Shown here: positions 3,709-63,970 of the stretch, in pieces
Layout of the letters: each line of letters starts with the position of its first letter
Position numbering within the stretch: the first letter of the stretch is position 1
Assembly (NCBI GenBank): GCA_036846145.1
Contig: DAIUCM010000001.1
Span: 7,350 to 71,349, forward strand
Source: Bacteroidota bacterium
Lineage (GTDB): Bacteria > Bacteroidota > Bacteroidia > CAILMK01
DNA length: 64,000 nt
Direction: 5' to 3'
Notes under the pieces: model-generated
Told to the model about the DNA's origin: nothing
The model's input: the letters and a program-made list of their open reading frames with translations, nothing else
Databases searched by the model: none
Translations under genes and position numbers: made by a program

Positions 3709-3736
3709 CATATATGTTAGACCTAAAAAATGCTTT
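3709..3736 (+). repeat. bipartite motif copy CATATATG-N13-ATGCTTT, 32 nt upstream of the GmrSD-like gene
   Basis: ctCATATATGttagacctaaaaaATGCTTTaa. Confidence 0.7.
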
Positions 3737-3767
3737 AAATTGTGAAAAATAAATTATCAAAAACTAA

Positions 3768-5537
3768 ATGGAAACCCAATCAAACAACACATTCTCAATT
3801 AAGGCAAAAACTTGCACTTTAAAACTTAAAAGCCAAGAAGATGGCGACACAATTTTAGGCAAAAATGTCAAGTACGTTATTCCAATTTACCAACGACCTT
3901 ATTCATGGAAAGAAGAACAAATCAGGAAGTTCATCTCAGATATATTTAATTCTTTCTGGGGAACTGATGGCGATTCGGAATCTGAAGCTATGTTTATCGG
4001 AACAATGCAGTTGTCTGACGCGAAAGAGATTATTGATGGACAGCAAAGACTTACAACCTTTCTATTGCTTTTAAAAGTTTTAAAACAGAATTATCCAGAT
4101 TGCAGCCAATTAAAAGATATAACTTTAGATTGGTTGAATACCAAAGTGAACAGCGGAGAACAACAACTATATTTAAATGAAGTAATTTCAAGTAATTTAA
4201 CTTTAAATGATGAAACACTGAATCCGTATTTAAAAAATGCTTATTTAATTAATGAGCTGATTGAGGAAGAAATTAAAGACGAAGAAGGAAATTACTTAAA
4301 CTTTGATATTGATAAGTTTTCTAATCATTTACTGAGCAACATCTATTTCGTTGTAATTGAAACACGTGCCGGATTATCAAAAACGCTGCAAATCTTCAAT
4401 GCAATAAATACAACAGGTCTAGATTTAAACGGCGGAGATATTTTTAAAATAAGAATGTACGAATACCTGAAAGATAAAAAAGGTAAAGATGAAACGGCTT
4501 TTGAAGATATTAGCAGGCTTTATCAAAAAATTGACCAACTGAATGCGGAACTAAAAGATAATGTAACGGACATGCACGGCATTCTAAATATTTACCAGTA
4601 CATTTTGATAGCAAAATTTAATTTGCCTACTGTACTTTATAACTATGCTACTGATGTTTTCTTTGAACACTTATTTGATAGCATATTCAACATAAACCAG
4701 TGGAATCATTTCAGCAATGTGAAAAATGTTGAGCTTTCAATTAATGAAATAGACAGAATAATAGATGCCAGATTTGATTGGGAACGAAAATGGTATGCAA
4801 AAGCTGAAGACATGGGATGCTATAAATTAATGGCGACATCTCGATACGGCAAATATTGCGATGTTTTACCAACAATATTACTTTTTGCTGATAAAAATGC
4901 CGATAGATTCTATTTCACACGACAGTTAAGTAAAGTTTATGCAATTTACAGTATTCGCTTCTTAAAAGCTGTAAATGAAATTCATCGGTTTACATACTCT
5001 CTCATTAAAGATATTCTTAACAAGCCTTTTGAGGAAATAATGCGAACTATAAACCAAAAGATCGGTAAACCTGAAGATCATAATCAAGGATGGTACGATT
5101 TAAATTGGTTTTTGTCTGAGAACCTAACAGAAAATGATAAAAGAAAGAAACTGATTTGTCGCCTATCTGCATTACTAGAGGAAAACTATCAAACTGAAGA
5201 TCAGAAAGAAATTGAGAACCTAAAAGATAAACTTTTTCATAACGACATAGATATCGAACATATCCAATCTTATCACGACAGAGATGGCAACAAAAGAGAA
5301 GATGTTTGGAATGAATGGAAAGAGGCAATAAATTCAATTGGAAACTTAATGGTTTTAGAATCAAGATTAAATCGTTCAATCAGTAATAAACCATATAATG
5401 AAAAACTGGTAAGATACCCGGAAAGCGCATATAAAATTGCACGTAAACAGACAGAATTAGCGGAATGGAATCTGAAAAAATGTCTTGAACGCAAAGAAAA
5501 AGAAACAATGAAAATTGTAGTATATCTTTTCAGTTAA
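3768..5537 (+). CDS. GmrSD-family single-chain nuclease (N-terminal DUF262/ParB-like NTPase with DGQQR motif; C-terminal DUF1524 His-Me finger), putative type IV modification-dependent restriction/defence enzyme
   Basis: 589-aa ORF. N-terminal ...IPIYQRPYSWKEEQIRKFISDI...IIDGQQRLTTFLLLLKVL... matches DUF262. C-terminal ...DIDIEHIQSYHDRDGN...WNEWKEAINSIGNLMVLESRLNRSISNKPY... matches DUF1524/HNH-like. The gene is markedly more AT-rich than flanking housekeeping genes. Confidence 0.8.
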   Translation: METQSNNTFSIKAKTCTLKLKSQEDGDTILGKNVKYVIPIYQRPYSWKEEQIRKFISDIFNSFWGTDGDSESEAMFIGTMQLSDAKEIIDGQQRLTTFLLLLKVLKQNYPDCSQLKDITLDWLNTKVNSGEQQLYLNEVISSNLTLNDETLNPYLKNAYLINELIEEEIKDEEGNYLNFDIDKFSNHLLSNIYFVVIETRAGLSKTLQIFNAINTTGLDLNGGDIFKIRMYEYLKDKKGKDETAFEDISRLYQKIDQLNAELKDNVTDMHGILNIYQYILIAKFNLPTVLYNYATDVFFEHLFDSIFNINQWNHFSNVKNVELSINEIDRIIDARFDWERKWYAKAEDMGCYKLMATSRYGKYCDVLPTILLFADKNADRFYFTRQLSKVYAIYSIRFLKAVNEIHRFTYSLIKDILNKPFEEIMRTINQKIGKPEDHNQGWYDLNWFLSENLTENDKRKKLICRLSALLEENYQTEDQKEIENLKDKLFHNDIDIEHIQSYHDRDGNKREDVWNEWKEAINSIGNLMVLESRLNRSISNKPYNEKLVRYPESAYKIARKQTELAEWNLKKCLERKEKETMKIVVYLFS

Positions 5538-5558
5538 TCAACCATACATTTCACCAAC

Positions 5559-6974
5559 TTGTCTAAACGAGGCTACATATCCCGCTATTTGCTGATTCTG
5601 AAAAAGCTAAAAGCAAAAAAGTATTGTTCTTTCGAGGAGCTGCAAAGCTATATTACCGACCAGTTGCATTACCTGCAAATGCATGACGATTCACTGCACA
5701 TTGGTTTTTCACCGAGAACTTTACAGCGGGATATTGGTGAAATCAGCAAAACTTTCGGGATTTATATTGAATATTGTCGGAAGGCAAAAGGCTATTTCAT
5801 CAGTTCTACGCAGGCAGAAAACATGAATTTCATGCGGATGGTAGAAGCTTTCGATATGTTCAACACTTTAAAAACGGTAGAAGACCTTTCACCATATGTT
5901 CATTTCGAGAAGCGGAAACCGCAAGGCACTGAACATTTTGCACCGGCGCTGGAAGCCATTCAGAAACAAAAAGTTATAAACTTCCAGTATTTTAAATTCG
6001 AGGAAGAAGAAGCGCGGGAAAGAACAGTGAAGCCATTGCTGCTGAAAGAATTCAAAAGCCGCTGGTATATTGTGGCGCAGGAAATGGGCGTTAATAAGAT
6101 AAAAACTTTCGGGCTTGACAGAATTTCCGAGCTTGTATTAACGCAGGAATCTTTTGAAAAACCACAGGATTTTAACGCGGAAGCATTTTTTGCCAATTGT
6201 TTCGGCATCATTAATCAGCCCAATGCGTACCCTGAAAATATCATTCTCTCATTCACAAAACTCCAGGGACAATACATTAAAACTTTTCCGCTACACGAAA
6301 CCCAGCAAATTTTAACGGACAATGAATTCCAAATCAAGATAAAGCTGCGCTTACATATTACGCACGATTTACTGATGGAATTACTTTCTTTCGGAGAAAA
6401 TGTGGAAGTTATATCACCTTTCAGCCTGCAGCAAGAATTGTACAATATCCACCAGAAATGCCTGCGCAAATACGATGTTTTCAGTGATGCCAATATTCAA
6501 AAATCTAAAGCTGAAAATATTTTAAAAACACTAAACAGGTTATTTTACAGCACTTTACAAATCAGCGATTACGGCAGCGAGCGATTCAGATTAAATGCCA
6601 ACCGATTCCGCGAATTGATCAACGCAGCGCAAAACTACAATATGGTTTTCAAGGAAGCGCCGCTTGAAAATGTAATGGTTGATCTGAAAAATCTACCGCA
6701 AGCAGCAATAAAACTTCTAACGCAAATCAACGAAATAAAAGCAAATCGACTGGAAGCTGCGGAAACTAACGATTTTGAATTAGCTGCCAAATTGCGCGAC
6801 CGGGAAAAACCGCTGATGCAGAAGTTATTCACCGATTATTATAGCCAAGGCTTTAAATATTTCAATGCTTCGGCTTATAAACCCAATATTATCCGGTTTT
6901 CATATACCGGCCATCCATTAGATTATTTATTGTACAAAGCCATCCAACGGCAGCCGCAATTGCAGGATTTCTAA
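5559..6974 (+). CDS. wHTH-WYL-WCX transcriptional regulator (BrxR/CapW-like) with ~160-aa C-terminal extension containing a UVR (UvrB/UvrC-type) motif
   Basis: 471-aa ORF 21 nt downstream of the nuclease gene. N-terminal wHTH: ...YCSFEELQSYITDQ...SPRTLQRDIGEI... WYL core: ...YQYFKFEEEEARERTVKPLLLKEFKSRWYIVAQEMGVNKIKTFGLDRISEL... WCX-like segment: ...LLMELLSFGENVEVISPF... C-terminal UVR motif: ...NDFELAAKLRDREKPLMQK... Confidence 0.7.
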   Translation: MSKRGYISRYLLILKKLKAKKYCSFEELQSYITDQLHYLQMHDDSLHIGFSPRTLQRDIGEISKTFGIYIEYCRKAKGYFISSTQAENMNFMRMVEAFDMFNTLKTVEDLSPYVHFEKRKPQGTEHFAPALEAIQKQKVINFQYFKFEEEEARERTVKPLLLKEFKSRWYIVAQEMGVNKIKTFGLDRISELVLTQESFEKPQDFNAEAFFANCFGIINQPNAYPENIILSFTKLQGQYIKTFPLHETQQILTDNEFQIKIKLRLHITHDLLMELLSFGENVEVISPFSLQQELYNIHQKCLRKYDVFSDANIQKSKAENILKTLNRLFYSTLQISDYGSERFRLNANRFRELINAAQNYNMVFKEAPLENVMVDLKNLPQAAIKLLTQINEIKANRLEAAETNDFELAAKLRDREKPLMQKLFTDYYSQGFKYFNASAYKPNIIRFSYTGHPLDYLLYKAIQRQPQLQDF

Positions 6975-6998
6975 AACAAAGGTCACAACAGCTCTTCG

Positions 6999-7027
6999 CC
7001 ATATATGCCATTGATAAGAAATGCTTT
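6999..7027 (+). repeat. bipartite motif copy between WYL regulator and yefM
   Basis: cCATATATGccattgataagaaATGCTTTaa. Confidence 0.7.
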
Positions 7028-7344: not shown

Positions 7345-7353
7345 CGTATCGCC

Positions 7354-7650: not shown

Positions 7651-7781
7651 TCATATATAATCAGCACAAAAAATACTTAAGCCTGAATGTTATTTCTGCC
7701 ATTACTTTTGATGCGAATGCAGAAAAGGAGTTTGAGGAATGCCAGGTGTAGATTAGAGGGCTATTGAGAACACTGGAATAA
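7651..7781 (+). repeat. direct repeat copy 2 (degenerate, non-coding remnant of pabB 3' end)
   Basis: 85% identical to 3491-3621 at a constant offset of 4160 nt. The pabB reading frame is interrupted here by stops (..aat act taa gcc tga..). Confidence 0.8.
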
Positions 7782-8212: not shown

Positions 8213-8275
8213 AACAAAAAGCACATACAACTTTCGCCATATGTGCCTTTGCTAAAAAATGCTTTATAGAGAAAT

Positions 8276-8572: not shown

Positions 8573-9901
<1,329 letters not shown>

Positions 9902-9996
9902 TTATTAATGATTGAATGACTGAGGGATTGAATGATTGAATATTTAAGTCTTTATTTTCAATTCTCATATATCATTCGTTCGAAAAATGCTTTGAT

Positions 9997-11115
9997 TTAT
10001 GAATTGATCATCTTAATAAAATCATCGAAAAGATAACCTGCATCATGTGGGCCAGGAGCAGCTTCCGGGTGATATTGCACACTAAATGCTTTTTTAGTTT
10101 TATGCCTGATTCCTTCTACAGAATTATCATTCAGGTTGATATGCGTAACTTCCACATCAGGCGTATTGGCAACATCCTCTGCAATAACACCAAAACCATG
10201 ATTTTGAGAAGTGATCTCGCAATGGCCGGTGATTAAATTCTTAACAGGATGATTTAATCCCCTATGGCCATTATGCAATTTGTATGTTCCTATACCGAAA
10301 GTTTGTGCCAAAATCTGGTGACCAAGACAAATCCCAAATAAAGGCTGATCATCATCCACAACTTTCTTGGTCGTTTCTACAGCGTAAGGCATTGCTGCCG
10401 GATCGCCAGGACCATTTGAAATGAAATAACCATGCGGATTCCATGCTTTCATTTCCTCATATTTGGTATGCGCCGGAAATACCTTCAGGTAACAATCTCT
10501 TTGCAGGAAATTCTCAAGAATATTTTGCTTCACGCCTAGATCAAGAACTGCAACTCTGTATGTAGCATCCGGATTGCCCATAAAATATGGTTCTTGAGTA
10601 GATACATCCGTTGAAAGCTCCAACCCTTCCATAGATGGTGTTTGGTTGAGAATTTCTTTCAGCTTTTCAATATCTGTTTCCTCAGAAGAAATCACAGCAT
10701 TCATCGCACCTTTATCCCTAATATAATTCACTAATGCACGCGTATCAACATCCGCTATAGCAATTATATTGTTTTCAAGAAAAAAATCCTGCAGTGAAGA
10801 ATCAGCCATTTTCCTTGAATATCCATTATTGAAATTACGGCAAACCAAACCTGCAATTTTTACATCACCGCTCTGATTTTCGACTTTCCTGATACCATAG
10901 TTACCAATGTGAACATTAGTTGTTACCATGATTTGGCCAAAATAGCTTGGATCGGTAAATACTTCCTGGTAACCGGTCATTCCGGTATTAAAGCAAATCT
11001 CACCGGTAGTTGTACCTATTTTACCGGCTGCTTTACCGTGAAAAACTTTTCCATCTGCTAAAAGAAGGACTGCTGTTTTTTCTTCGAAAACTTTCATTGT
11101 GCAAAGATATTTCAA
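9997..11115 (-). CDS. carA: carbamoyl-phosphate synthase small subunit (glutamine amidotransferase)
   Basis: 372 aa. N-terminal CPSase small-chain domain plus class-I GATase with ...LFGICLGHQ... catalytic Cys. Confidence 0.9.
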   Translation of the reverse strand: MKYLCTMKVFEEKTAVLLLADGKVFHGKAAGKIGTTTGEICFNTGMTGYQEVFTDPSYFGQIMVTTNVHIGNYGIRKVENQSGDVKIAGLVCRNFNNGYSRKMADSSLQDFFLENNIIAIADVDTRALVNYIRDKGAMNAVISSEETDIEKLKEILNQTPSMEGLELSTDVSTQEPYFMGNPDATYRVAVLDLGVKQNILENFLQRDCYLKVFPAHTKYEEMKAWNPHGYFISNGPGDPAAMPYAVETTKKVVDDDQPLFGICLGHQILAQTFGIGTYKLHNGHRGLNHPVKNLITGHCEITSQNHGFGVIAEDVANTPDVEVTHINLNDNSVEGIRHKTKKAFSVQYHPEAAPGPHDAGYLFDDFIKMINS

Positions 11116-11118
11116 AAA

Positions 11119-11149
11119 AAAAGGATAAAGCTAAAAAGCTTTATCCTTT
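11119..11149 (-). terminator. intrinsic terminator downstream of rplQ (end of alpha operon)
   Basis: Perfect hairpin AAAGGATAAAGCT-aaaa-AGCTTTATCCTTT. On the minus strand it is followed by a run of 8-9 T (complement of A-run 11111-11120). Confidence 0.75.
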
Positions 11150-11172
11150 TCCATATATTGTATTAACAAAAA

Positions 11173-11748
11173 TTATTCTGCTTTATTTTCACCGTTGTTG
11201 TCATCATCCTTTTTAGATGTGCTTGATGTTTCAGGAGCAGAAACTTCTGCATCAGTTGCATCGGCCTTTGCATTATTCTTTGTAGCTGCAGAAGCAATAA
11301 CTTCAGTTGCATCTTCAGCGCCAGCTTTTTTACCACCTCTTCTACGACGGGTTTTACCTGCAGCTTTCTTAGTTCCTGTTGTGTACAATTCGTTGAAATC
11401 TACTAACTCCATGATACACATTTCTGCGTTATCACCTAAACGGTTACCAATTTTCAAAATTCTTGTATAACCACCTGGTCGGTCAGCAATTTTTGCTGCT
11501 ACTTCACCAAATAACTCTCTTACAGGATCTTTGTGCTTTAATGCCTTGAAAACCATCCTGCGTGAGTGCGTTGTATCAGTTTTTGCTTTTGTAATTAATG
11601 GCTCAACATACATACGAAGCATTTTAGCTTTCGCTACAGTAGTTTTAATTTTCTTGTGTAAGATAAGCGAAGAAGCCATATTAGCAATTAATGCTTTACG
11701 GTGACTTGCAGTTCTGCCTAAATGGTTTATTTTATTACCGTGATTCAT
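11173..11748 (-). CDS. rplQ: 50S ribosomal protein L17 with Lys/Ala-rich C-terminal extension
   Basis: [45 protein letters not shown]... then a ~70-aa basic/acidic low-complexity tail. Confidence 0.95.
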
Positions 11749-11821
11749 CTTCTTATATTATGGGTTGAAGCATTTTTCCGCAATATGATATATGGAAGCT
11801 CTCCAACAATTTTTGTACTTA

Positions 11822-12811
11822 TTATTCTTCGTCCAATCTGTATTTGTGAATGTCCATTCCGAATGTAAGATTTTTATCACGAACCAGATCCTCAAGTTCA
11901 GTTAACGATTTCTTACCAAAATTTCTGAATTTCAAAAGATCAGCAATATCATATTGTACAAGATCACCTAATGTTTTAATCTCAGCTGCACGTAAACAGT
12001 TGAAAGCTCTAACAGAAAGATCCAAATCAGTAAGCTGCGTTTTCAGAAGTTTTCTCATGTGCAGGAATTTCTCATCTACACGATTTTCTTCCTTCTTCAT
12101 TTCACTGTCAAGAGTCATATTCTTGTCAGAGAAAATTATAAGGTGCTGAATCATGATTTTAGCAGCTTCTTTTAATGCCTCCTCTGGATGAATTGAACCA
12201 TCAGTCGCCAACTCTAAAATTAATTTTTCATAATCCGTATTCTGGCCAACACGCGTATTTTCGATACTGTATTTAACCTTACGAATAGGAGTAAAAATTG
12301 AATCAATAGCAATATGACCAATTATTGATTCTTTTGGTTTATTATCTTCTGAAGAAAGATATCCCCTGCCTTTTTCAATAGTTAGCTCAAGCTCGAATTT
12401 AACAGAAGGCTCAAGGTGACAAATTACCAACTCCGGATTCAATACTTCAAAATAATTTGAAGCTTTACCTATATCACCAGCAGTAATTCTATCCTGACCA
12501 TTTATTGAAACAAATATTTTTTCCGAATCTTCATTCGAGATTCTACGAAACCTAACTTGTTTCAGATTCAGAATAATTTCAGTTACATCTTCTATAACAC
12601 CATTGATGGCAGAGAACTCATGATCAACACCGTTAATACGAATAGACGTAATAGCAAAACCTTCCAGTGATGATAGTAAAATCCTTCTAAGAGAATTTCC
12701 TATTGTTACGCCATATCCTTTTTCAAGAGGCGAAAACTCAAAAGTACCTTCAAAGTCTGATGCCTTTTGCATTACTACCTTCTCGGGCTTTTGAAATGCT
12801 ATAACTGCCAT
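11822..12811 (-). CDS. rpoA: DNA-directed RNA polymerase subunit alpha
   Basis: 329 aa. N-terminal assembly domain plus C-terminal CTD ...[20 protein letters not shown]... Confidence 0.97.
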
Positions 12812-18105: not shown

Positions 18106-18504
18106 TTATGAAATATAACAAAGTACTTCTCCACCAACATTTTCACGGCGTGCATCCTTCTCAGTCATAACGCCGCGTGAAGTAGAAATTATTGCAGTAC
18201 CTAAACCATTAATAACTCTTGGTAATTCTGCTGCAGGCTTATAGTGTCTTAAACCTGGCCTGCTTACTCTTTTTAAATTATTTATAGCAGAAATACCGCT
18301 TGTGCTATCGTATTTCAATGCTATTTTAATGGTTCCCTGCGGACCATTATCATTATCAAACCTGTAACTTAAAATATAACCTTGTTTATATAAAATTTCG
18401 GTTATAGCTTTTTTTAAGTTAGAAGCAGGTATTTCGACAACCCGGTGCTTTGCTTTAACAGCATTTCGCAGACGAGTTAGATAATCAGAAATTGGATCAG
18501 TCAT
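18106..18504 (-). CDS. rpsH: 30S ribosomal protein S8
   Basis: 132 aa, MTDPISDYLTRLRNA... Confidence 0.97.
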   Translation of the reverse strand: MTDPISDYLTRLRNAVKAKHRVVEIPASNLKKAITEILYKQGYILSYRFDNDNGPQGTIKIALKYDSTSGISAINNLKRVSRPGLRHYKPAAELPRVINGLGTAIISTSRGVMTEKDARRENVGGEVLCYIS

Positions 18505-28106: not shown

Positions 28107-28334
28107 AATAAACTATGTTCCTCTTTTTATTTTTGGAAGTGCAAAGGTAGAGTATATTTTAATACCTACCAAAATTTTTTTTATTTTTACTAAACAATTT
28201 TGTTTTTTTTGATTCGAAGGTCTTAGTTAGCTTTTTGACACTATTAACTATCAGGATTTTAAGTATTTTTACGGAAAAGCATATATGAATATATTTTCTG
28301 CCATATTTATAACTTGAAAAAAATAGTTAAAAAA

Positions 28335-33047: not shown

Positions 33048-33075
33048 CATATATGGTTTTGCTGAAAAATGCTTT
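33048..33075 (+). repeat. bipartite motif copy 39 nt upstream of rpoC
   Basis: gCATATATGgttttgctgaaaaATGCTTTtg. Confidence 0.7.
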
Positions 33076-33085
33076 TGTTCAGTTT

Positions 33086-33162
33086 GAAAGTTGTAAGGTT
33101 GCAAGGTTGTAAAGTTGCCGCGATGCGCAGAAACCTTTCAACCTTGCAACTTTTCAACTTTC
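33086..33162. repeat. imperfect 24-bp inverted repeat (hairpin) in rpoB-rpoC spacer
   Basis: Arms GAAAGTTGTAAGGTTGCAAGGTTG (33086-33109) and CAACCTTGCAACTTTTCAACTTTC (33139-33162) are separated by 29 nt. Flanked by two copies of the CATATATG...ATGCTTT motif. Confidence 0.7.
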
Positions 33163-33173
33163 TAAACCAATTC

Positions 33174-37009: not shown

Positions 37010-37051
37010 GGAAGTATTTTTTAATTAAACAATATATGGAAGTATATAAAT

Positions 37052-39241: not shown

Positions 39242-39328
39242 TTTTGTTTTTAGTTTGACAACTGCCTGCCTACTGTAAAGTATTTTTTAACAATACTATA
39301 TATGTTAAGCGTGCAGCAATTTATATAA

Positions 39329-42448: not shown

Positions 42449-43336
42449 TTAACCCTTGGGATGGGCTTGTTTGTAAATAGTTTTTAATCTTTCTATTGAG
42501 TTGTGGGTATAAATTTGCGTGGCGGCAAGGTTAGCATGGCCGAGCAATTCTTTAATAGCATTAATTTCCGCGCCATTGTTCAGCAGGTGCGTAGCGTATG
42601 TATGGCGCAAAACATGCGGACTGTTTTTTTGAATGCTGCTTACCATGCTTATGTATTTTTTTACTGCACGGTTCACAAACATGGGGTAAAGCGGCTGACC
42701 TTTATCGGTTACCAGTAATGTTGTACTGGTAAATCCATAAAGCATTTTTTGCTGCAGGTATATATGAATTGCCTCGGCAGTTTGCGCGGGAACAGGTATA
42801 ATGCGCTCTTTATTACGCTTTCCTGTAACTTTAATACATGATTCGGCCAGATTTATATTTTTCTCTTGCAATGATATTAGCTCGCTCAAACGCATCCCCG
42901 TACCATATAGCAGCTCGAGGATAAGCTTATCCCGTTGACCATAAAAATCGTCGGGGAATTCTATATATTCATTATCGAATAAATGGTTTGTTTCTGTTTC
43001 TGTAAGCCATTGAAAAAGCCTTTTCTCTGTTTTAACACTTTGTATTGCAGCCATTGGGTTTATTGCTACAGCTCCGCTCCTGAGCAGGAACTTATAAAAA
43101 GTATTAAGCGCAACCAGTTTACGGTTAATGCTGCGGGCGCTGAGCTTTTGCTGGGTTTGCTCGTAGATCCACGATTTTACCATAGCAGGTTTTACAACCG
43201 ATTCATCCGCTACGGAGTACTGAACTTGCAGAAATGCAAAAAACTGCGCTACGTCATTAACATAGGCAGTTCCTGTATGCTTCGAATATCTTCTCTCGTT
43301 TTGTAGGTAATCTGCAAATTGCGCAAGCTTACTCAT
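42449..43336 (-). CDS. tyrosine-type site-specific recombinase, XerC/XerD family
   Basis: 295 aa with catalytic ...RHTYATHLLNNGAEINAIKELLGHANLAATQIYTH... Sits between rpsU and hpf, a conserved chromosomal arrangement in Bacteroidota, so it is more likely a chromosome-dimer-resolution Xer than a mobile-element integrase. Confidence 0.8.
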   Translation of the reverse strand: MSKLAQFADYLQNERRYSKHTGTAYVNDVAQFFAFLQVQYSVADESVVKPAMVKSWIYEQTQQKLSARSINRKLVALNTFYKFLLRSGAVAINPMAAIQSVKTEKRLFQWLTETETNHLFDNEYIEFPDDFYGQRDKLILELLYGTGMRLSELISLQEKNINLAESCIKVTGKRNKERIIPVPAQTAEAIHIYLQQKMLYGFTSTTLLVTDKGQPLYPMFVNRAVKKYISMVSSIQKNSPHVLRHTYATHLLNNGAEINAIKELLGHANLAATQIYTHNSIERLKTIYKQAHPKG

Positions 43337-45543: not shown

Positions 45544-45867
45544 CAATGTATATTCCTGTATTATTTAAGCCGGCCTTTTAATAAATTTCCTAATTGCCAT
45601 TCTGGTATTTACCAATACCCATATAGAATTGCTGTAAAATGCTTCGCTGTAAGCTTAAATGCTGCTCATTCTTTTTTATGAAATCTATAAAACTATAATT
45701 ATGGCAGCTTTCTTGGAGAAACTATTAGTTTGCCAAAGCATTTTTAGTGGATTATATATATGATGCCTTATTAAAATGAATCTCAAGATTTTAAACAAAG
45801 ACTTCGCCAGATTAACTTTTGGCCTTTACTGGTTATTGTAATTTTACTTCCGCTTGGATTATCCAAG

Positions 45868-46110
45868 TTGAAGTATGGATCTGATGAATTTCTTAAGCGT
45901 ATGCCAGATGGTCATTCTAATGTTGGGATTGTAATATCGGCGTGCTCTATAATAGAAGTAATTCTGATAGTTATAACATTTATTGCTTATTTGTTAAAAG
46001 AACAAATCGTCCACAATCAACTTATTCATTTTATAGCGCTATTGCTTTTGTTTATAATCGGAGTTGTTCCAGGTTTGTTAGTACTTTGGACAGTGTGGTT
46101 CAGGATTTAA
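45868..46110 (+). CDS. hypothetical small membrane protein (doubtful)
   Basis: 80-aa ORF with two hydrophobic stretches in an otherwise gene-free 0.9-kb AT-rich spacer. No family recognised. Confidence 0.25.
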   Translation: MKYGSDEFLKRMPDGHSNVGIVISACSIIEVILIVITFIAYLLKEQIVHNQLIHFIALLLLFIIGVVPGLLVLWTVWFRI

Positions 46111-46467
46111 TCAGCTTTCACGCTAGTAAAGCATTTTTTCAGGCTTGTATATATGGATTTCATAAATTAGTCGCCTTTACTGGCTTTGCAATTTGCCCAT
46201 TTGTGCCGCTCATTCAGGGTTTTGCAATATATTCCGCAAATGCTTAAGCTTACTATAATCGTCAATTATTCGTAATAATCCTATTGGTGCATTTAACTTT
46301 TAGCGACAGGAATATTCTCCGGTTAAATCAGTATTTGGATTTTTTTTCACCCTTCCCCAACCAATAATAATATTATCACATCATTGCTTTTGTAAAGTGA
46401 AAATTGCAATATCACAAACTAACCATTTAACTATTAATTAATTACAATACCTAAATTTAATATTATT

Positions 46468-47685: not shown

Positions 47686-47755
47686 CATATATATTATAGC
47701 CTTAAAATGCTTTGTGTATTAAAACGCAAAGCATTTTTTGGTTAAGGCATATATG
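47686..47755. repeat. two motif copies in inverted orientation (47686-47713 forward, 47728-47755 reverse)
   Basis: gCATATATAttatagccttaaaATGCTTTgtgtattaaaacgcAAAGCATtttttggttaaggCATATATGt. Confidence 0.75.
47704..47739 (+). terminator. intrinsic terminator after thioredoxin-fold paralog 3, built from two inverted copies of the ATGCTTT half-motif
   Basis: AAAATGCTTTGTGT-attaaa-ACGCAAAGCATTTT then TTGG. The 14-bp stem has one G.U, and the T-run is partly within and partly after the stem. Confidence 0.6.
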
Positions 47756-48158: not shown

Positions 48159-48926
48159 TTATTGCCTGCAAATAAGCCTGCCGCTGCCGGTTAGCGTAAA
48201 ATCGCCGTAAAACTTCATATCGCAGAAAGTAGCCACCAAATTTCCGTTCTCAATGGTTACGTTTACACGGCCTTTTTCCTCAGATGAAGGGTAATACCAC
48301 CTGCCGCCAAGCAGTACGCGTATCATAACTTCATCGGCTCCCATAAAGGATAAGCTTTTGCTTGATATAGGATAAGACCTGGCTGAGGTTGGCCTTGTGG
48401 CAGTTCCAAAAAACAGCTCAAAATCGCTTTGGCTGTTGCCGCCTGAAATTGAAAATTTATTATCGTTACTATGGCTTCCGCCGCAATACGTATTGTTGTA
48501 CTTTAAGTCGTAACCCAGGCCGTTAAACCTTATAACATTATCGGGTATGGTACATTTTACAGCTGGCGGCGTTACTTTAACCAATACTTCGGCGGCCTCG
48601 CTTCTGCAATAGTTGCGTGTATTATATATCTTATAGATGCCGGCTTTTTCCTGCGTTGCATTGTAAACGGTAGCATTTTCGGAGTAGTAAGAAACATCAA
48701 CATCTTTTGGCCCAACTATAGTAACAGTTGTGTTATCATCGGGCCTGCGTGGCATGGGTATTAAAATGGTTTCGCCTTCCTGCACTTCTACAACGGTTTG
48801 CGTTAATACCGGCTTTTTTACTGTTTCACAGCCGGGAGGCGCACTCTCATCATAGCAGCTGCTTAGCGAAAATATTATTGTAAGCGGCAAAAGCATTCTG
48901 CCTAAACTATTTTTTAGCGTATTCAT
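48159..48926 (-). CDS. hypothetical lipoprotein
   Basis: 255 aa. Signal peptide with lipobox ...IIFSLSSC-YDES. No recognised domain. Confidence 0.55.
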   Translation of the reverse strand: MNTLKNSLGRMLLPLTIIFSLSSCYDESAPPGCETVKKPVLTQTVVEVQEGETILIPMPRRPDDNTTVTIVGPKDVDVSYYSENATVYNATQEKAGIYKIYNTRNYCRSEAAEVLVKVTPPAVKCTIPDNVIRFNGLGYDLKYNNTYCGGSHSNDNKFSISGGNSQSDFELFFGTATRPTSARSYPISSKSLSFMGADEVMIRVLLGGRWYYPSSEEKGRVNVTIENGNLVATFCDMKFYGDFTLTGSGRLICRQ

Positions 48927-48963
48927 ATATGTAAGCGGTTAATTATTTGTGTTGATTTTTATA

Positions 48964-50004: not shown

Positions 50005-50202
50005 GTTATAGTGAGGTTTGTTTGTATATGCGGATTAATTATTGCGAAAATAAACTTTTTCCATATTTTAATATCATAAAATTACATCTTTAGTAATAAT
50101 AATCCTGGTTGCCTATATATTGGGTTTCTGAAAAATGCTTTGGCCACTGCATTAATGGTTTGTATATCGAAAATTAAACACGTGCAAATCTGTTATAAAG
50201 AC

Positions 50203-52218: not shown

Positions 52219-52332
52219 TTAAACCGCATATAGCAATAACCTGTAAAATACTTTATTATATGCTTACCAATTATCATTATTATGCTTCAGCCAGGTTGGT
52301 TGCGAACTAAAGACTCGTGTTAATAAATCGAT

Positions 52333-53088: not shown

Positions 53089-53252
53089 AACCGAAGCTTT
53101 AATAGTAGTAACTCTTACAAAAAGCTAAATAGTATTTATGGTACAAAATTTTGTACATACAGCTTCAGTAAAATATCGGAGTAAACTTTCAGATTACGCA
53201 CCTTATTAAGAAGATAACCGATTACAGCAATTTTTCATCAGCATTCCATATC

Positions 53253-53762
53253 TTACACTTCGTAAAAATGCTTTTGCAGGTAAACGGTATCCAGCAATCT
53301 GCCGAATTTAAATCCCATTTTTTTGAAATGCGCACACTGTGAAAAGCCGTTTTTCTCGAACATTTTTATGCTGGCTGTATTTTCCGCTGTGCATCCGGCC
53401 ACAAGTGTTCTAATGTCATTCTGTATAGCCATGTTTTCAAGGTATTTTACCGCTGCGCTGCCAATACCTTTAGCCGTAAATTCTGGTTTTAAATAAATGG
53501 TTACTTCTGCCGTATGCCTGTAAGCTTGCTGTTTTTTCCAAAGCATCAGCGAACAATAGCCTGCAACTTCATTTTCATCTTTAATTAAAAAAGTACCATA
53601 TATAGGATTGCTGAAAAATACTTTTTCGCGCATATCTTCCGCACTTAATATTTCTGTGTGGAATGTGGCGGTGGAATTGCGAACATAATTGTTTAGTATT
53701 TCTGCAAGCAGCGGTAAATGAGCTTCCTTTACTGCCTCGAACCGGTAAGATCTTGAATTCAC
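53253..53762 (-). CDS. GNAT family N-acetyltransferase (phosphinothricin/amino-acid acetyltransferase-like)
   Basis: 169 aa, ...TAEVTIYLKPEFTAKGIGSAAVKYLENMAIQNDIRTLVAGCTAENTASIKMFEKNGF... acetyl-CoA binding motif. Confidence 0.8.
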   Translation of the reverse strand: MNSRSYRFEAVKEAHLPLLAEILNNYVRNSTATFHTEILSAEDMREKVFFSNPIYGTFLIKDENEVAGYCSLMLWKKQQAYRHTAEVTIYLKPEFTAKGIGSAAVKYLENMAIQNDIRTLVAGCTAENTASIKMFEKNGFSQCAHFKKMGFKFGRLLDTVYLQKHFYEV

Positions 53763-54783: not shown

Positions 54784-54811
54784 CATATATACGTTGGCGG
54801 AAAAATGCTTT
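54784..54811 (+). repeat. bipartite motif copy 6 nt from the MmcQ/YjbR start codon (opposite strand)
   Basis: gCATATATAcgttggcggaaaaATGCTTTag. Confidence 0.7.
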
Positions 54812-56157: not shown

Positions 56158-56282
56158 ATTATAGTACTACAACCAAAAATGACTTGTTATTCTGGCATTA
56201 AATGTTGCGGATAGTAAAGGCTGTTTCCATATATGATTTGGCTGTAAAATATGTTGCTTTGACTTATTAAGATTTAAAATTC

Positions 56283-57551: not shown

Positions 57552-58076
57552 TTAAAACAAATATAAAGATAAAAGTTTCTGTTTGAAATTGTGGTTTCCA
57601 TATGTGGTTTGGCTGGAAAATGCTTTCGTAATTTGTTGGCATTTGCTGGCGCGAGCTTGTAGCTCGTGCATCGTTCTATTGTAGTTGGCACGAGCTACAA
57701 GCTCGCGCCAGCGATTGGGCTCATTTAACCTAAGCGATCTTTTATTAATTTTAAATGTATCAAAGGCCAGGTTCAGAGTTAAATCCAATTTTTTAGCCCT
57801 ATTAATTATGCTATCAACTTGTATTGAATTACTTTTCAAAAAGGTTAAATTATTTCTTATTTCTCCATATAGTATTTTGTAAATCTTTTGGTTTTCTACT
57901 GGCATGAAGTACTCCGGATGTGAAAAATACTCTAATTGGCTGGTATTCAAGTTTTGTGTATATTCCGAAGAAATGCTGTCTGCAATTAGATTGAAATTAT
58001 TTCCGGAATTAGGATTTTTACAGCTCAGATTTGTAATTAGCACCAACAACAAGAATATTGAGAAAGATACTTTCAT
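57552..58076 (-). CDS. hypothetical lipoprotein whose 3' end runs through a repeat element
   Basis: Taken from the internal ATG (complement 58074-58076): MKVSFSIFLLLVLITNLSC-KNPN lipobox. The track's 58160 start is a TTG. The last ~55 codons are encoded by a CATATGTG...ATGCTTT motif copy plus a perfect 25-bp inverted repeat. Confidence 0.5.
   Translation of the reverse strand: MKVSFSIFLLLVLITNLSCKNPNSGNNFNLIADSISSEYTQNLNTSQLEYFSHPEYFMPVENQKIYKILYGEIRNNLTFLKSNSIQVDSIINRAKKLDLTLNLAFDTFKINKRSLRLNEPNRWRELVARANYNRTMHELQARASKCQQITKAFSSQTTYGNHNFKQKLLSLYLF
57645..57712. repeat. perfect 25-bp GC-rich inverted repeat with 18-nt loop
   Basis: GCTGGCGCGAGCTTGTAGCTCGTGC (57645-57669) / GCACGAGCTACAAGCTCGCGCCAGC (57688-57712). 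Exact reverse complements. Confidence 0.85.
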
Positions 58077-58191
58077 TAAGTAATAACGATTTTTCGGCAA
58101 GATAATATATGTAACAATAAAAATGCCCCAACGCTTTTGCGTTGAGGCATTTTCAATCAATGTTATATATGCGTACGGAGCGTGGATGATA

Positions 58192-60159: not shown

Positions 60160-60332
60160 TTTTATAAAAGTTTTTAGGTTTTAAATTTATTTACTCCGGC
60201 TTACTCTAAAGTTGTGCCAAAGGATTTTTAAGACATTTTTGCAAAGGATTGTGGAACTTTTGTCAGGTGGAACAATGAAAGAATGTAAGATTGAATGAAT
60301 GTAAGAATAAAATGACTGAATTTGCTTTCGCG

Positions 60333-60360
60333 CATATAAAGGGCGGCTTGAAAATGCTTT
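60333..60360 (+). repeat. bipartite motif copy upstream of groES
   Basis: gCATATAAAgggcggcttgaaaATGCTTTtt. Confidence 0.6.
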
Positions 60361-60663
60361 TTGTCTGAAATGTAATTTTTTTGATTTTGGTGGTTGATAT
60401 GATTTTTAAGTAATTAATGGGATATAAAATTGAAATTCGATAAAGGTTAGACCTGCAACTTCTTGAAAAAGTGGCAGGCCTGCGCGCTGAACTATTAGCT
60501 ACATACAAGTTATTTCATTTATAATCCCAATGCATTTTTCATCATTAATATATATGTAAACGAAATCAAACGAATATCAAAATCAAATAAAATCAAAGTT
60601 CTGACATGTATTTAAACCAGAATTAAAAAATTTGCGTTAGGCAAAAAGAAGGAGATAAAGATT

Positions 60664-61383
60664 ATGAGACTGAAAGAGAGCTGGCTTACGGATGGAATTA
60701 TAGATTTTGAATATAAAAAATACTTGTTGCTTGGTTATTTACAATCGGTAGAAAAAGATTTTACCAGCAACAAATTGTACCCAAGTTTAGGTGAGCTCAT
60801 TGCGCATTACCAGAATTTACAAACATTTATACAATGCAAGGAAGCAACAGAAAAAGCATTTCCGAAAGACCTGAAACAAATAGATCTGCAGAATTTCTTT
60901 TTGCGCTACCAGAAGGTTGTAGAAGACGATGAAGTAATGGCAGAAATTGAAAAGATACTCAACTTCAGCGTACCAAAAATAAAGCAAAGCCTGGAAGAAG
61001 GCCGCGAAATTTACGACTGGATTGAAGAACGTTTGAGTTTATGGCCTTTGGGTATTGTGCCATTACAGCAACAGGCAGGTTATCTTTTCATCCGCAATGG
61101 CGAGAAAGATAAAGAAACCAAAGTTTACGAATATCAATTAAGTTTTCTGCAGCAGGCCAATGATACTTATCGCGCCATACAAACACAATTTGTGAGTACA
61201 TATAGCACATCAATCATAAATACTTATGAAAGTATAAAATCTCAGGTTATAAAAACACAAAAGCTGCTTATTGCGCCTGCGGTTTATGTAGTTGAAAGTG
61301 AGCTGCAACTGCCTTTAACAGAAACCCTGTTACCTATCGCAAGACGAGCTTTGGTAAGGCATTTGACTACGAATGGGTTCTAA
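60664..61383 (+). CDS. hypothetical protein
   Basis: 239-aa ORF with good coding texture and no recognisable domain. Ends at a bidirectional terminator shared with secG. Confidence 0.5.
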   Translation: MRLKESWLTDGIIDFEYKKYLLLGYLQSVEKDFTSNKLYPSLGELIAHYQNLQTFIQCKEATEKAFPKDLKQIDLQNFFLRYQKVVEDDEVMAEIEKILNFSVPKIKQSLEEGREIYDWIEERLSLWPLGIVPLQQQAGYLFIRNGEKDKETKVYEYQLSFLQQANDTYRAIQTQFVSTYSTSIINTYESIKSQVIKTQKLLIAPAVYVVESELQLPLTETLLPIARRALVRHLTTNGF

Positions 61384-61427
61384 AGCATTTTTCGGCATTG
61401 CCATATATGCACAAAATAAATAAATAT

Positions 61428-61456
61428 AAAAAGCCGGGCTTAAAACCCGGCTTTAT
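61428..61456. terminator. bidirectional intrinsic terminator between convergent genes
   Basis: AAAAAGCCGGGCTTAAAACCCGGCTTTATTTT. GC stem AGCCGGG/CCCGGCT with A-run on one side and T-run on the other. Confidence 0.75.
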
Positions 61457-61482
61457 TTTATGTACAATTGTAAATCTCAGTT

Positions 61483-61839: not shown

Positions 61840-61841
61840 GG

Positions 61842-63458
61842 CTAGGGCTTGGTGTTTATCTCGTTTATTTTAACTGCAAAGTAATTACTTTTTTGCGGAT
61901 ATTTACGCATTAACTGCTGAAAAATTTCTACAGCTTTTTCGTTCAGGCCCTGTTTGAGATAAATATTGGCTAAAGTTTCCGTTACCAGCGTTGTATCTTC
62001 CTCAGCGCTTCGTTCAGCAACATCCTGCGGGGTAAAGAATTTTGCAGGCTTGGGTTTTATCCTCGGTTCAGCCTGTATAAATTTTGAAATGATATTGTCA
62101 ACCTCATTGGGTTTCGGCTTACGTACAGGTTTCGGTTCCGGCTTTAGCAAGTCAATGGGTACAATGTTAGCAGGTTCTTTAACAGCAACTTCGGCAGTTT
62201 CAGCACTAACTGTATTTGCATCCTGCTGAGAAAGTGATTTCAGCCAATCGCCGAATTTTAATGGTGTTTTACCGGACTGTGTTTTGTTATCTGTTTCTAC
62301 TTTAAAACCGTTATGCTGAACTGGCTCAACAATAGTTGCTTCAGGCTCAGGTATAGTTACTGGATCTTGCAAAGGCGCTTTAACAGGCTTAAATTTCTCC
62401 TGGAAAGCAAAATAATCGTAAGCAGCAAGTGGTGGCAGATCTAATAAATCACTTTCTTTTCTTACTGATGATGATTTTTTGTCCTGGCAAACCTCTGCAT
62501 CCTCTGCTACAAACTGCTCGCCAATTTCATCAATATTTTGTTTTGCCTGGTCTTCTTCCGCTGGTTTACCCTCTGTTTCAAGTAATTCCAAAGTGCCAGG
62601 TTGTAACTCTTCAATATTCTCTTCCTCTGCAGGAATATTATTTTCTTCACCAGCTATTTGTTGAAACGCCTGGCCTTTGTGTTCTGCTTGCGTTTCAGCA
62701 TTATTTTCAATATTTAAAATACCTTCGGCTTCCTTATTTGTTTCTGCAACAGCCTCGTTAATATCAACCGCATTGTCTTCGGTTACAGCTTCCGATTCAG
62801 TAATTATCTCGTTTTCAGTAGCTTTCGTTTCTTCCCCCACTCCATCTGCTCCCGTTTTATATTCTTCTTTTACTAAAGATTCTGTATCAGCCCCAGAGCG
62901 TTCTTCTGAAATAGATGAACCAGAAACTATTTTTTCATTTTGAACAGCTTGGGTATCAGGTTCAGCTACATTTACAGTTTCTGCTACATTAATAACTGTT
63001 TCAGCTGCAGCATCATTTAAAATTACCTGTTCTTCGAATTCATCTTGTTCTTCAGGCAATGTTGGTTGATGTGATTCCAACGCAACTATTTTTTCAGGAA
63101 CATTTATATGGGCAAGCCCGGCAATTGATTCATTATCAGCCGGTTTATAAATTATTTCCTCTTGAAAACTTCCTGTTTGCTTATTACTTACCGCTGTTTC
63201 AGAAACGTTGTCAGCAATGGATAATGGCGTGTGAATAAAATTATAAAGCACTTCCCTATCGCCAATATAACCCGCGCTTAGCTTCAGGTACTTATCAAAA
63301 TAAATACTTTTCTGCTCAGATAACAGCTTGGTTAACAATACATATGGTGCTGAGAAATAGGGAAATTCCTCAATAAGCTCCTTAATTAGTGGAAGATCTT
63401 TCTCATGCTCCATGCGCAGCGGCTCACGAATAATATTTAATACGCGCTGCCTGTTCAT
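61842..63458 (-). CDS. hypothetical protein, acidic low-complexity middle, TPR-like C-terminus
   Basis: 538 aa. Conserved-looking N-terminal ~80 aa and C-terminal ...ETLANIYLKQGLNEKAVEIFQQLMRKYPQKSNYFAVKINEI... flank a long Glu-rich disordered region. Confidence 0.55.
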   Translation of the reverse strand: MNRQRVLNIIREPLRMEHEKDLPLIKELIEEFPYFSAPYVLLTKLLSEQKSIYFDKYLKLSAGYIGDREVLYNFIHTPLSIADNVSETAVSNKQTGSFQEEIIYKPADNESIAGLAHINVPEKIVALESHQPTLPEEQDEFEEQVILNDAAAETVINVAETVNVAEPDTQAVQNEKIVSGSSISEERSGADTESLVKEEYKTGADGVGEETKATENEIITESEAVTEDNAVDINEAVAETNKEAEGILNIENNAETQAEHKGQAFQQIAGEENNIPAEEENIEELQPGTLELLETEGKPAEEDQAKQNIDEIGEQFVAEDAEVCQDKKSSSVRKESDLLDLPPLAAYDYFAFQEKFKPVKAPLQDPVTIPEPEATIVEPVQHNGFKVETDNKTQSGKTPLKFGDWLKSLSQQDANTVSAETAEVAVKEPANIVPIDLLKPEPKPVRKPKPNEVDNIISKFIQAEPRIKPKPAKFFTPQDVAERSAEEDTTLVTETLANIYLKQGLNEKAVEIFQQLMRKYPQKSNYFAVKINEINTKP

Positions 63459-63970
63459 TACCAGTTATTTACAGATCGGTTAAAAATTTCCTGTATCAAT
63501 TTATCGCTAATCTCATCAATCAGCTGCGCTTCAACCTGCGATACCGAAACGGATGCATCAAAATCCGCGAACTGGCTGAAATCCTGCTCGAAATTCGCTT
63601 TAGGATCGAGCTTGTTTTCGAACCGCACATTTACAGTTATAGTAAGCCTGTTTAGCGTGGTTTGCGCATTGCCTTGTACCGCAGCCGGCGAAACTACATA
63701 ATTGGAGATAAAACCTGTATAATACAACTCGCCATCTGTTTGAACTTGCGTTAACCTTGTTTGTCTCAGGAACTTATCTCTGAGCTTCTCGGTAAAAACC
63801 TGGCTTAGTGTTGGATTAATTATGCTTGCCTTGTTGGGAAAATAATCGATTGTAACGGTTTTTGCGGTTATGGGGTTGGTGCCGGTAAACGAGTACGAGC
63901 AGCAGCCGGAAAAGCCCGTAACCAGTAAAATCCATATAAGGATACGCAGAAAAATGCTTCGGTTTTGCAT
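63458..63970 (-). CDS. LptE-like lipoprotein (putative LPS-assembly lipoprotein)
   Basis: 170 aa, lipobox ...LLVTGFSGC-CSYS. Position upstream of the secG neighbourhood is as in other Bacteroidota. Family assignment is tentative. Confidence 0.5.
   Translation of the reverse strand: MQNRSIFLRILIWILLVTGFSGCCSYSFTGTNPITAKTVTIDYFPNKASIINPTLSQVFTEKLRDKFLRQTRLTQVQTDGELYYTGFISNYVVSPAAVQGNAQTTLNRLTITVNVRFENKLDPKANFEQDFSQFADFDASVSVSQVEAQLIDEISDKLIQEIFNRSVNNW

Follow-up and report, generated by a model that had tools for sequence, protein, structure and literature searches.

A rigid two-part DNA word repeated through the genome of a narrow Bacteroidota clade, tentatively read as an uptake- or transfer-type signal

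The 64-kb window analysed here (64,000 nucleotides of contig DAIUCM010000001.1) is a Bacteroidota chromosome segment carrying the S10-spc-alpha ribosomal-protein operons, rpoBC, rplKAJL, nusG, tuf, five tRNAs, groESL, eno and carA. About once every 2 kb it contains a two-part DNA word composed of TTCCATATAT, about ten free bases and AAAAATGCTTT. This word is massively above chance, has a rigid bipartite geometry, and is strictly limited to a narrow clade. Its copies arise in place by point substitution, even at a cost to protein sequence, and their distribution follows tolerance rather than need. By analogy with the uptake signals of other bacteria, we tentatively regard the word as a putative protein-recognised DNA signal that would accumulate by biased transmission, a reading that we consider quite possible without calling it probable.

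Geometry, abundance and phylogenetic range of the word

The pattern CATATRTG-N13-ATGCTTY has eight exact matches in the window and none in 100 shuffles, and CATATATG-N13-ATGCTTT with up to two mismatches has 32, against a shuffled mean of 0.38 and a maximum of 3; the motif described by eye in a first-pass annotation of this DNA is therefore real and well above shuffled expectation. When the window was scanned with a position weight matrix (PWM) built from good copies, 42 sites scored above 12, compared with 0-3 in shuffled sequence. Copies scoring at least 27, of which there are 27, are termed strong here, and about 12 more are weak (Table 1). All 21 copies that had been listed as good were recovered within 1-2 nt, including the one at 45620-45645, whose left half is shifted as described. 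Five of the six listed as degenerate score as weak or moderate, the sixth (11152-11179) being a left half only. The list was not complete, however, having missed strong copies at 2521(-), 2717(-), 3314(+), 28260(-), 39277(-), 42739(-) and 53597(+) and a weaker one at 37011(-). Altogether about 7-9% of the intergenic DNA in the window consists of this one repeated word, which should serve as a caution to annotators.

The relatives with which the window was compared were found by protein search and form a graded series. The word is present in L205 (GCA_004210945.1; RpoC 96%, 84% nucleotide identity; four copies in 5.3 kb), L206 (ENA ERZ25038114 NODE_55; GroEL 99%; 23 copies in 21.6 kb), and L207 and L208 (GCA_054315415.1 and GCA_054315395.1; GroEL 95%). 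By contrast, no copy was found in the L203, L204, L201 and L202 loci (RpoC 90, 89, 88 and 87%, respectively) or in the L209 locus (GroEL 87%), these five motif-free loci amounting to about 92 kb, nor in 80 other Bacteroidota rpoC loci (1.65 Mb in total). The motif-free sisters are from JGI 3300034853, 3300034883, 3300075630 and 3300034855 and ENA ERZ19026217. Among the matches listed for GTDB representatives, the best RpoC identity was 75% (Sphingobacteriaceae). An exact-word scan of metagenome contigs returned many short contigs of one JGI sample (Ga0157371), besides a few others with several copies each, and a metagenome contig that is 86% identical in nucleotide sequence to the pabB-like gene of the window (L131) has counterparts of both in-gene copies of the overlap. 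Viral contigs (IMG/VR) yielded single chance-level matches only and no multi-copy contig. K-mer counts in the sister lineages gave no comparable 'dialect' word, the rpoBC neighbourhood being a poor sample for this purpose. The word is thus confined to lineages with at least 96% RpoC or at least 95% GroEL identity.

The G+C content of the motif-bearing lineage is 38-40%, compared with 43-50% in motif-free L201-L204 and L209, and its intergenic spacers also hold several unrelated palindromic insertions; the two observations suggest a recent change in the genome dynamics of this clade.

A logo of 103 copies from the window and related contigs refines the consensus to tTC-CATATAT-R-N9-AAAAATGCTTT-(r)(g), an asymmetric word of 31-33 bp with an information content of about 30 bits. 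The two blocks are CATATAT at positions 1-7, preceded by tTC, and (R)AAAAATGCTTT at positions 17-28; between them a G-C is weakly conserved at positions 14-15, and no information falls outside positions -2 to 30. CATAT and AAAATGCTT combine at a single distance in 21 of 23 cases in the window and in 15 of 15 in L206, and 21 of the 27 AAAATGCTT words in the window have their partner at exactly that distance. The rigid spacing noted at first sight is therefore upheld, but the A-run that had been assigned to the spacer is part of the right block, so that the free spacer comprises only about 10 nt.

CATATATG is also the palindrome at the centre of two-armed sites. Because the centre is palindromic, two words could share it, giving the 48-bp arrangement AAAGCATTTTTT-N9-CATATATG-N9-AAAAAATGCTTT that occurs in three metagenome contigs (L129, L200 and L115). 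One further pair, in the window, has its arms facing each other with a weak stem, whereas most copies are single. Tandem copies in the same orientation, about 90-125 nt apart, occur in several contigs; the idea that they sit in a larger repeat of about 100 nt was rejected, the segments between copies being mutually unrelated.

Placement and orientation relative to genes

The strong copies lie in intergenic DNA in 19 cases, inside open reading frames (ORFs) in seven and over a stop codon in one, corresponding to 2.4 per kb of non-coding and 0.13 per kb of coding DNA, an 18-fold intergenic bias. The first description of coding DNA as nearly devoid of copies captured this trend but overstated it, as seven of the 27 strong copies are in ORFs: three in the pabB-like gene and one each in the xerC/D-like gene, the GNAT gene, the LptE ORF and an unknown ORF. 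About two thirds of the intergenic regions of at least 50 nt in the window carry a copy, as do all four convergent regions, one of them with a very weak match only. Copies also lie inside tight operons (rpoA-rplQ, nusG-rplK, rplL-rpoB and rpoB-rpoC), overlap or closely follow stop codons (rpoB, carA and a 239-aa gene, at most 3 nt past), and lie 1-5 nt from start codons in either orientation (eno, the YjbR-family gene and rpoB). There are none within the rpoB or rpoC genes, and no strong copy over the 8 kb of rpoBC or over the 16-kb ribosomal-protein cluster, whereas the 1.3-kb pabB gene holds three.

Orientation is random with respect to genes, in keeping with what had first been noted. In the window and L206 combined, co-directional intergenic regions contain nine copies pointing with transcription and 11 against it, the copies inside ORFs divide six to eight in the same sense, and a further ten lie between convergent and nine between divergent genes. 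This randomness excludes a promoter, a terminator or an RNA element, and within the reach of sequence analysis any strand-specific role, be it as promoter, terminator, RNA or peptide, is excluded. With respect to the forward strand, the strong window copies are used 16 (+) to 11 (-); the L206 locus is used 17:6, and the orthologous part of the window leans the same way, which leaves room for a weak replichore or gene-strand polarity of the word.

Folding offers no sign of an RNA-level function. Segments of 40 nt around the copies have a mean minimum free energy of -2.8 kcal/mol and a mean z-score of +0.2, with 0 of 54 below -2, and a scan of the window against Rfam 15 found no family at the gathering threshold except the five tRNAs. 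An RNA structure or a hairpin of the REP (repetitive extragenic palindromic) type was rejected on these grounds, and the rigid spacing together with these results supports the original proposal that the word is a DNA-level signal of the type recognised by proteins. Intrinsic termination was likewise dismissed, in agreement with the first-pass annotation: single copies do not fold, and between 44.5 and 64 kb there are 13 terminator-like sites compared with 18 in shuffles, only one of which (61430-61454) adjoins a copy. A mini-ORF (ATG-CTT-stop) in the right block fails as well, as the next codon is a stop in 36 of 103 copies and TGG (16) is as common there as TAG (16).

The word might alternatively be the promoter of a lineage-specific alternative sigma factor, possibly producing leaderless mRNAs, or a terminator or processing site. 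In its favour, there is about one copy for every transcription unit, with some lying directly against start codons; the right block includes AAAAATG, and a weak likeness to the Bacteroidota -7 box (T-R-n-n-T-T-T-G-C) is seen at positions 7-15. Yet this explanation, of which the leaderless promoter had been one of three options offered at the outset, is barely credible and largely refuted: copies are oriented at random with respect to the downstream gene, they occur between convergent genes, past stops, in tight operons and 1-5 nt from starts either way, and the -7-like part is the least conserved part of the word. The Bacteroidota sigma-A promoter (TTG-N19-21-TAnnTTTG) shares with the word its frequency of about one per transcription unit and the weak likeness in the spacer, but not the word's lack of a fixed orientation or distance to genes. 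A canonical one (TTG-N20-TACCTTTG) stands apart from the word upstream of rpsL at 28142-28172, and -7 boxes of the TAnnTTTG type were seen upstream of other genes. Sigma-70-like sites occur at chance frequency (62 versus 61 expected). A sigma-54 promoter (GG-N10-GC; TGGCAC-N5-TTGC) was rejected because TGGC is found only in a subset of copies and the GG-GC spacing is one base short. For all three sigma factors the analysis thus arrives at the same exclusion as the first reading.

Origin of copies by substitution

The clearest view of how copies arise comes from the xerC/D-like gene, in which motif-free relatives have ATAGAAATGTACATGGCTGAAAAAAGTAGAATG (L204) and ATAGAAAGATACTTTGAATTCAGGGAGAAGTCC (L201) where the motif-bearing genomes have ATTCATATATACCTGCAGCAAAAAATGCTTTAT (window) and ATACATATATATAAAGAGCAAAAAATGCTTTCG (L206), at the same length and with changed amino acids. 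In the codon alignment, one motif-free relative reads ATA GAA ATG TAC ATG GCT GAA AAA AGT AGA ATG (IEMYMAEKSRM) and the other ATA GAA AGA TAC TTT GAA TTC AGG GAG AAG TCC, the window reads ATT CAT ATA TAC CTG CAG CAA AAA ATG CTT TAT (IHIYLQQKMLY), and L206 reads ATA CAT ATA TAT AAA GAG CAA AAA ATG CTT TCG. The blocks were therefore built by substitution and not by insertion or deletion, and the spacer codons differ between the window and L206. The pabB copy at 3314 falls within the conserved AFPMGSMTGAPK region, which aligns without gaps to the PabB structure PDB 3h9m. In the rplL-rpoB spacer, whose length is 102-116 nt across five genomes (the window and four motif-free relatives), the right arm of copy 37011 is an ancestral invariant leader (AAAA..ACTTCCTTG), and the left block TTCCATATAT has been gained by substitution.

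This leader and an upstream hairpin (AGACCTG...CAGGTCT) are kept in all five relatives compared and are typical of an rpoB attenuator; rpoB itself appears to start at a TTG codon (window 37009).

A short mobile repeat (REP, REPIN or MITE, the last a miniature inverted-repeat transposable element) or a solo transposon end, spread by a transposase, is very improbable and largely refuted by these alignments, since in-gene and rplL-rpoB copies replace ancestral sequence without a change in length. Column-shuffled controls for one genome gave an expected 6.5 near-identical spacer pairs and a maximum of 15, compared with 11 observed; spacers are hardly more alike than in the controls, which means that no master element gave rise to the copies recently. 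Spacer variation is free and forms no families, the 103-copy logo contains neither flanking repeats, conserved flanks or target-site duplications nor a GTAG or CGTC tag, there is no hairpin, and single-armed copies stop exactly at the palindrome and not at random truncation points. No transposase was found among the window ORFs scanned, the search for RAYT proteins covering only the DNA analysed. The MITE or copy-and-paste family that the first-pass annotation had set against its own proposal, with terminal inverted repeats and target-site duplications, was rejected for the lack of flanks, duplications and spacer families. What speaks for mobility is that the rpoB-rpoC spacer has been enlarged from about 20 nt to 101-190 nt and now holds two copies (18-62 nt in relatives without the word, compared with 101 nt in L205 and 190 nt in the window). 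The tandem copies in several contigs, the 48-bp palindromes with inverted ends and the presence in the clade of unrelated palindromic insertions, such as that at 33076-33173, point in the same direction. The first copy in the rpoB-rpoC spacer still aligns to the ancestral TTTGGAGGTTA spacer.

In motif-free L203 (8025-8060) and L204 (9975-10005), the rpoB-rpoC spacer, of 18-21 nt, contains a Shine-Dalgarno-like GGAGG. In the motif-bearing lineage, a motif copy (TTTGAGGTTG) now uses this ancestral GGAGG stretch as its spacer, with rpoC starting about 80-170 nt beyond it.

Processes that could write the word into genomes

An uptake- or transfer-like signal is the best reading of the word on account of its rigid geometry, absence of strand logic, birth by substitution, persistence of blocks, tolerance-led distribution and clade limit, and drive by biased DNA uptake is the only well-studied process writing long words into genomes like this. 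A single sequence-specific DNA-binding protein or complex, peculiar to a clade of uncultured, Sphingobacteriales-like Bacteroidota, would read the word as double-stranded DNA. Fragments bearing it would be preferentially taken up or otherwise transferred and then recombined among cells of the clade. Any mutation bettering a match would spread unless harmful to a gene, a biased transmission amounting to molecular drive. The copies themselves settle where they are tolerated, in intergenic spacers of all kinds and in weakly constrained parts of genes. It is a doubtful, though conceivable, further step that such signals in Bacteroidota represent a third independent invention and the first outside Proteobacteria, with a receptor acquired by a young clade and about 2,000 copies per genome (extrapolated from the density in the window) produced by drive over a proposed span of 90-96% RpoC identity.

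Several known systems share features with the word. HIP1 of cyanobacteria (GCGATCGC) is a lineage-specific 8-bp palindrome found far above chance under an unknown selective or repair-linked force; the word resembles it in being lineage-specific, far above chance and present in coding and non-coding DNA, but HIP1 is a perfect palindrome with no intergenic bias, whereas the word is long, asymmetric and bipartite. The DNA uptake sequences (DUS) of Neisseriaceae, short contiguous words of 10-12 bp read by the minor pilin ComP, resemble it in their strong intergenic bias, inverted pairs near gene ends and sharp dialect boundary, yet they are much shorter than a bipartite word of 28-33 bp and about 30 bits.

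The closest likeness is to the uptake signal sequences (USS) of Pasteurellaceae, a 9-bp core with two helically phased AT tracts over about 29-32 bp. Both words are long and asymmetric, combining a conserved core with flexible AT-rich segments whose spacing is fixed; both are clade-specific, arise by substitution, and occur about once per 1-2 kb in both orientations. Like USS, the word is under-represented in ORFs without being absent from them, codons and amino acids having changed to accommodate it there (PMC2817400). Uptake sequences in general occur in both orientations, are under-represented in ORFs (34.5-65% of copies; 49-65% for Pasteurellaceae USS and 34.5% for Neisseriaceae DUS), form intergenic dyad pairs, which often act as terminators, and reflect drive against coding constraint (PMC2817400). 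Of such pairs the word offers the facing one in the window, with its weak stem, and the centre-sharing dyads of three metagenome contigs, most copies being single. The word differs from USS in its unrelated sequence, its phylum, its lower share in ORFs (about 26%) and its palindromic block, which allows two-armed sites with a shared centre. The option of an uptake sequence, one of the three offered by the first-pass annotation, nonetheless gains support from the in-place origin, both orientations, ORF under-representation and clade limit and, less clearly, from the few dyads.

REP, BIME and REPIN elements are also highly repeated and mostly extragenic, occur in operons and at 3' ends, and are clustered; in E. 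coli, REPs bind architectural proteins (IHF, gyrase). REPs are described as imperfect palindromes, rich in G+C, that fold into hairpins, bear a GTAG/CGTC tag and owe their mobility to RAYT transposases (PMC3733652, PMC2817692). The word lacks hairpin and tag, has variable spacers and is born by substitution inside genes.

Weighing against an uptake- or transfer-type signal are, first, that many of these patterns would equally result from selection for some cellular role of the binding protein, that a share of about 26% of copies in ORFs is below any known uptake-signal case, and that a 30-bit word is longer than DUS. To our knowledge, uptake specificity has been shown only in two proteobacterial families, and the competent Bacteroidota that have been studied show none. 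The motif-bearing sample consists of the 64-kb window, about 35 kb of L205-L208 loci and short metagenome contigs. Blocks persist in 12 syntenic pairs (11 window copies compared with L205, L206, L207 or L131): 6 of 216 block positions are mismatched, compared with 40 of 120 in the spacers, a contrast inflated by the picking of pairs as copies in both genomes. Close relatives also differ by the decay or gain of individual sites, as in the secG and groES regions and downstream of the DUF3467 gene. Moreover, the growth of intergenic spacers is unexplained by pure substitution, which implies that insertions or duplications also occur. Finally, L206 encodes, beside miaB (713-1645), a membrane-anchored protein with three ComEA-type helix-hairpin-helix repeats, but a ComEA-like gene is also found beside miaB in motif-free L209 (19700-20530). 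As a candidate for a clade-specific receptor this protein is uninformative, being present in motif-bearing and motif-free lineages; the pair is 41% identical, compared with about 87% for GroEL, indicating that the protein evolves fast.

The strongest competitor to uptake or transfer, though rather unlikely, is that an abundant architectural or nucleoid-associated protein specific to the clade binds the word, selection for its cellular function keeping the sites. Such a protein, for example a bender like IHF, a domain-boundary or insulator protein or a roadblock to transcription, could bind as a dimer on the CATATATG dyad and contact one or two AAAAATGCTTT arms. The palindromic centre and the full 48-bp dyad sites are in line with this, as are the A5-6 tract beside a flexible TATATA segment, typical of bent-DNA sites, the presence of a copy in about two thirds of the larger intergenic regions and in all four convergent ones, the retention of blocks at orthologous sites while spacers diverge, and the independence of orientation, which suits a DNA-level role. 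However, tolerance and not spacing sets the sites, as is evident from the contrast of the ribosomal-protein cluster and rpoBC with pabB, and in-gene sites cost amino-acid changes that such a function would hardly justify. The sister lineages (RpoC 87-90%) do without any copy, so that no conserved cellular need is apparent, and individual sites turn over between close relatives.

Another signal biased by transmission or repair, accumulating because the DNA that carries it is preferentially transferred or spared, is clearly unlikely. Candidates are a packaging or transfer-initiation site of a domesticated phage-like particle or conjugative element, and a Chi-like self-marker or recombination signal that a nuclease of repair or defence recognises. 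Signals of this kind would equally account for the in-place origin, both orientations, tolerance-limited distribution and clade specificity, and nothing in the sequence marks the recognising machine as an uptake apparatus. Known words of the Chi and KOPS type, however, are 5-8 nt long and replication-polarised, whereas strand use here is 16:11 in the window and only locally 17:6 in L206; no phage or viral contig has multiple copies, and no relaxase, terminase or nuclease candidate was found within the 64 kb.

Should the word prove to be an uptake or transfer signal, sequence-biased gene exchange would have evolved independently in Bacteroidota and been caught young, the sisters at 87-90% RpoC identity still lacking the word, as the ancestor did. 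The old question of how uptake sequences originate could then be approached by reconstruction of one site after another, and differences in gene content between sisters with and without the word could guide the search for the receptor. Should it instead be an architectural site, it would be an unusually specific, abundant and recently arisen site of bacterial chromatin. In either case, the word provides a sharp marker for binning and classifying the clade in metagenomes and a ready-made oligonucleotide for pull-down (TTCCATATATGGTTTGGCTGAAAAATGCTTT). No description of the word, or of uptake sequences in Bacteroidota, was found in the searchable literature, and that on competence and on REP/RAYT in Bacteroidota and Sphingobacteriia yielded nothing relevant.

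Catalogue of copies and neighbouring features

Table 1. Copies of the word and related sites (window coordinates unless a contig is given)
Position	Strand	PWM score	Location and remarks
2521-2548	-	32.5	Strong; inside pabB-like ORF (2323-3621), which matches PabB structures
2717-2744	-	34.5	Strong; inside pabB-like ORF; counterpart at matching place in L131
3314-3341	+	30.9	Strong; inside pabB-like ORF, coding for IPYINAIKNAF; conserved in L131
3709-3736	+	30.8	Strong, exact match; intergenic, 31 nt ahead of GmrSD-like gene start
7000-7027	+	32.1	Strong, exact match; intergenic, 25 nt past WYL-domain gene stop
8218-8245	-		Degenerate second arm (2 mismatches) of 8218-8265 site, sharing the central palindrome
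8238-8265	+	35.5	Between convergent genes
9869-9896	+	34.0	Strong; CATATAT end 3 nt from opposite-strand enolase start codon
9966-9993	+	29.7	Strong; GCTTT end 3 nt from carA stop codon
11152-11179			Left half only
11767-11794	-	36.0	Strong; within operon between rpoA and rplQ
19798		18.6	Weak; sole match in 16-kb ribosomal-protein cluster
28260-28287	-	27.9	Between DUF3467 gene and rpsL; gain and decay in L205 alignment
about 28302-28329			Decayed second copy in DUF3467 gene-rpsL spacer
33048-33075	+	40.0	Best window copy; rpoB-rpoC spacer, 38 nt from rpoC start; orthologous copy in L205
33174-33201	+	33.5	Overlaps rpoB stop codon (TAAAGCAT); orthologous copy in L205
37011-37038	-	24.6	Weak; ends 1 nt ahead of rpoB TTG start
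39277-39304	-	29.2	Between nusG and rplK
42739-42766	-	29.0	Strong; inside xerC/D-like recombinase gene (IHIYLQQKML)
42962-42989	+	17.0	Weak; inside xerC/D-like gene; conserved in L206
45618-45645	+	20.9	Degenerate; left block shifted
45735-45762	-	27.6	Strong; intergenic
46128-46155	-	33.1	Strong; long gene-poor spacer; surrounding ORF 45942-46247 doubtful, no Pfam match
47686-47713 / 47728-47755	+ / -	29.2 / 32.3	Inverted pair, GCTTT ends facing (inverted repeat I17); weak A/U-rich hairpin, 2 nt past gene stop
48904-48931	-	24.3	Weak; over start codon; may be chance
50114-50141	+	29.4	Strong; divergent intergenic region
52227-52254	+	17.9	Weak; over opposite-strand canonical TTG-N..-TAAGTTTG promoter-like site
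53247-53274	+	28.4	Straddles GNAT gene stop; L206 copy 18390-18417 by blastn coordinates
53597-53624	+	34.4	Strong; inside GNAT acetyltransferase gene (Pfam GNAT domain); L206 18041-18068 by blastn coordinates
54784-54811	+	38.0	Strong; 5 nt from opposite-strand YjbR-family gene start
56228-56255	+	20.3	Weak
57599-57626	+	35.2	Strong; L206 match 12751-12778 outside called genes
58144-58171	-	23.5	20 nt past groEL; same variant kept in L206 and L207; right block (AAAATGCCTC) is 5' stem of hairpin ending in T-run
60333-60360	+	27.3	groES/239-aa-gene divergent region; L206 orthologue at 9469
60529-60556	-	27.0	groES/239-aa-gene divergent region; L206 orthologue at 9095
61382-61409	-	37.7	Strong, exact match; between convergent genes, over one stop codon; abuts secG terminator hairpin (61430-61454)
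63933-63960	+	30.3	First codons of LptE ORF; conserved in L206 5230-5257
L129:502-549			Full 48-bp dyad site
L200:978-1025			Full 48-bp dyad site
L115:1380-1427			Full 48-bp dyad site

The last 131 nt of the pabB-like gene (3491-3621) are repeated with 85% identity 4160 nt downstream (7651-7781). The two repeats bracket a segment of low G+C content (33-36%) encoding a restriction enzyme of the GmrSD type (3768-5537) and a protein with WYL/WCX/UVR domains (5559-6974). This segment has the appearance of an integrated defence island whose target was duplicated. This putative island nevertheless holds two strong copies of the word (3709 and 7000).

Between the two rpoB-rpoC copies lies an imperfect palindrome of 91-98 nt (33076-33173) with AAGGTTGN-like octamers, whose arms (33083-33122 and 33126-33165) are 83% complementary. 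It is absent from L205 despite 96% RpoC identity, indicating a recent insertion of a different hairpin-type element within the rpoBC operon. A GC-rich hairpin at 57640-57717, with 30-nt arms (93% complementary) and an 18-nt loop, adjoins the copy at 57599. Short direct repeats of the 'gattgaatga' type stand beside copies upstream of eno (9897-9965) and groES (60290-60330), and may be another small repeat family of this genome.

Past the rplQ terminator hairpin, at 11098-11172, a -7 box (TATCTTTG) is positioned 4 nt ahead of the carA ATG, an arrangement that suggests a leaderless carA mRNA. In metagenome contig L132 (MWWI01001127.1; 1-4518), an ORF with the SecA C-terminal domains lies upstream of one beginning with the SecA N-terminal domains, the two being separated by three copies of the word and a GC-rich palindrome; a tandem secA, a rearrangement or a misassembly could account for this.

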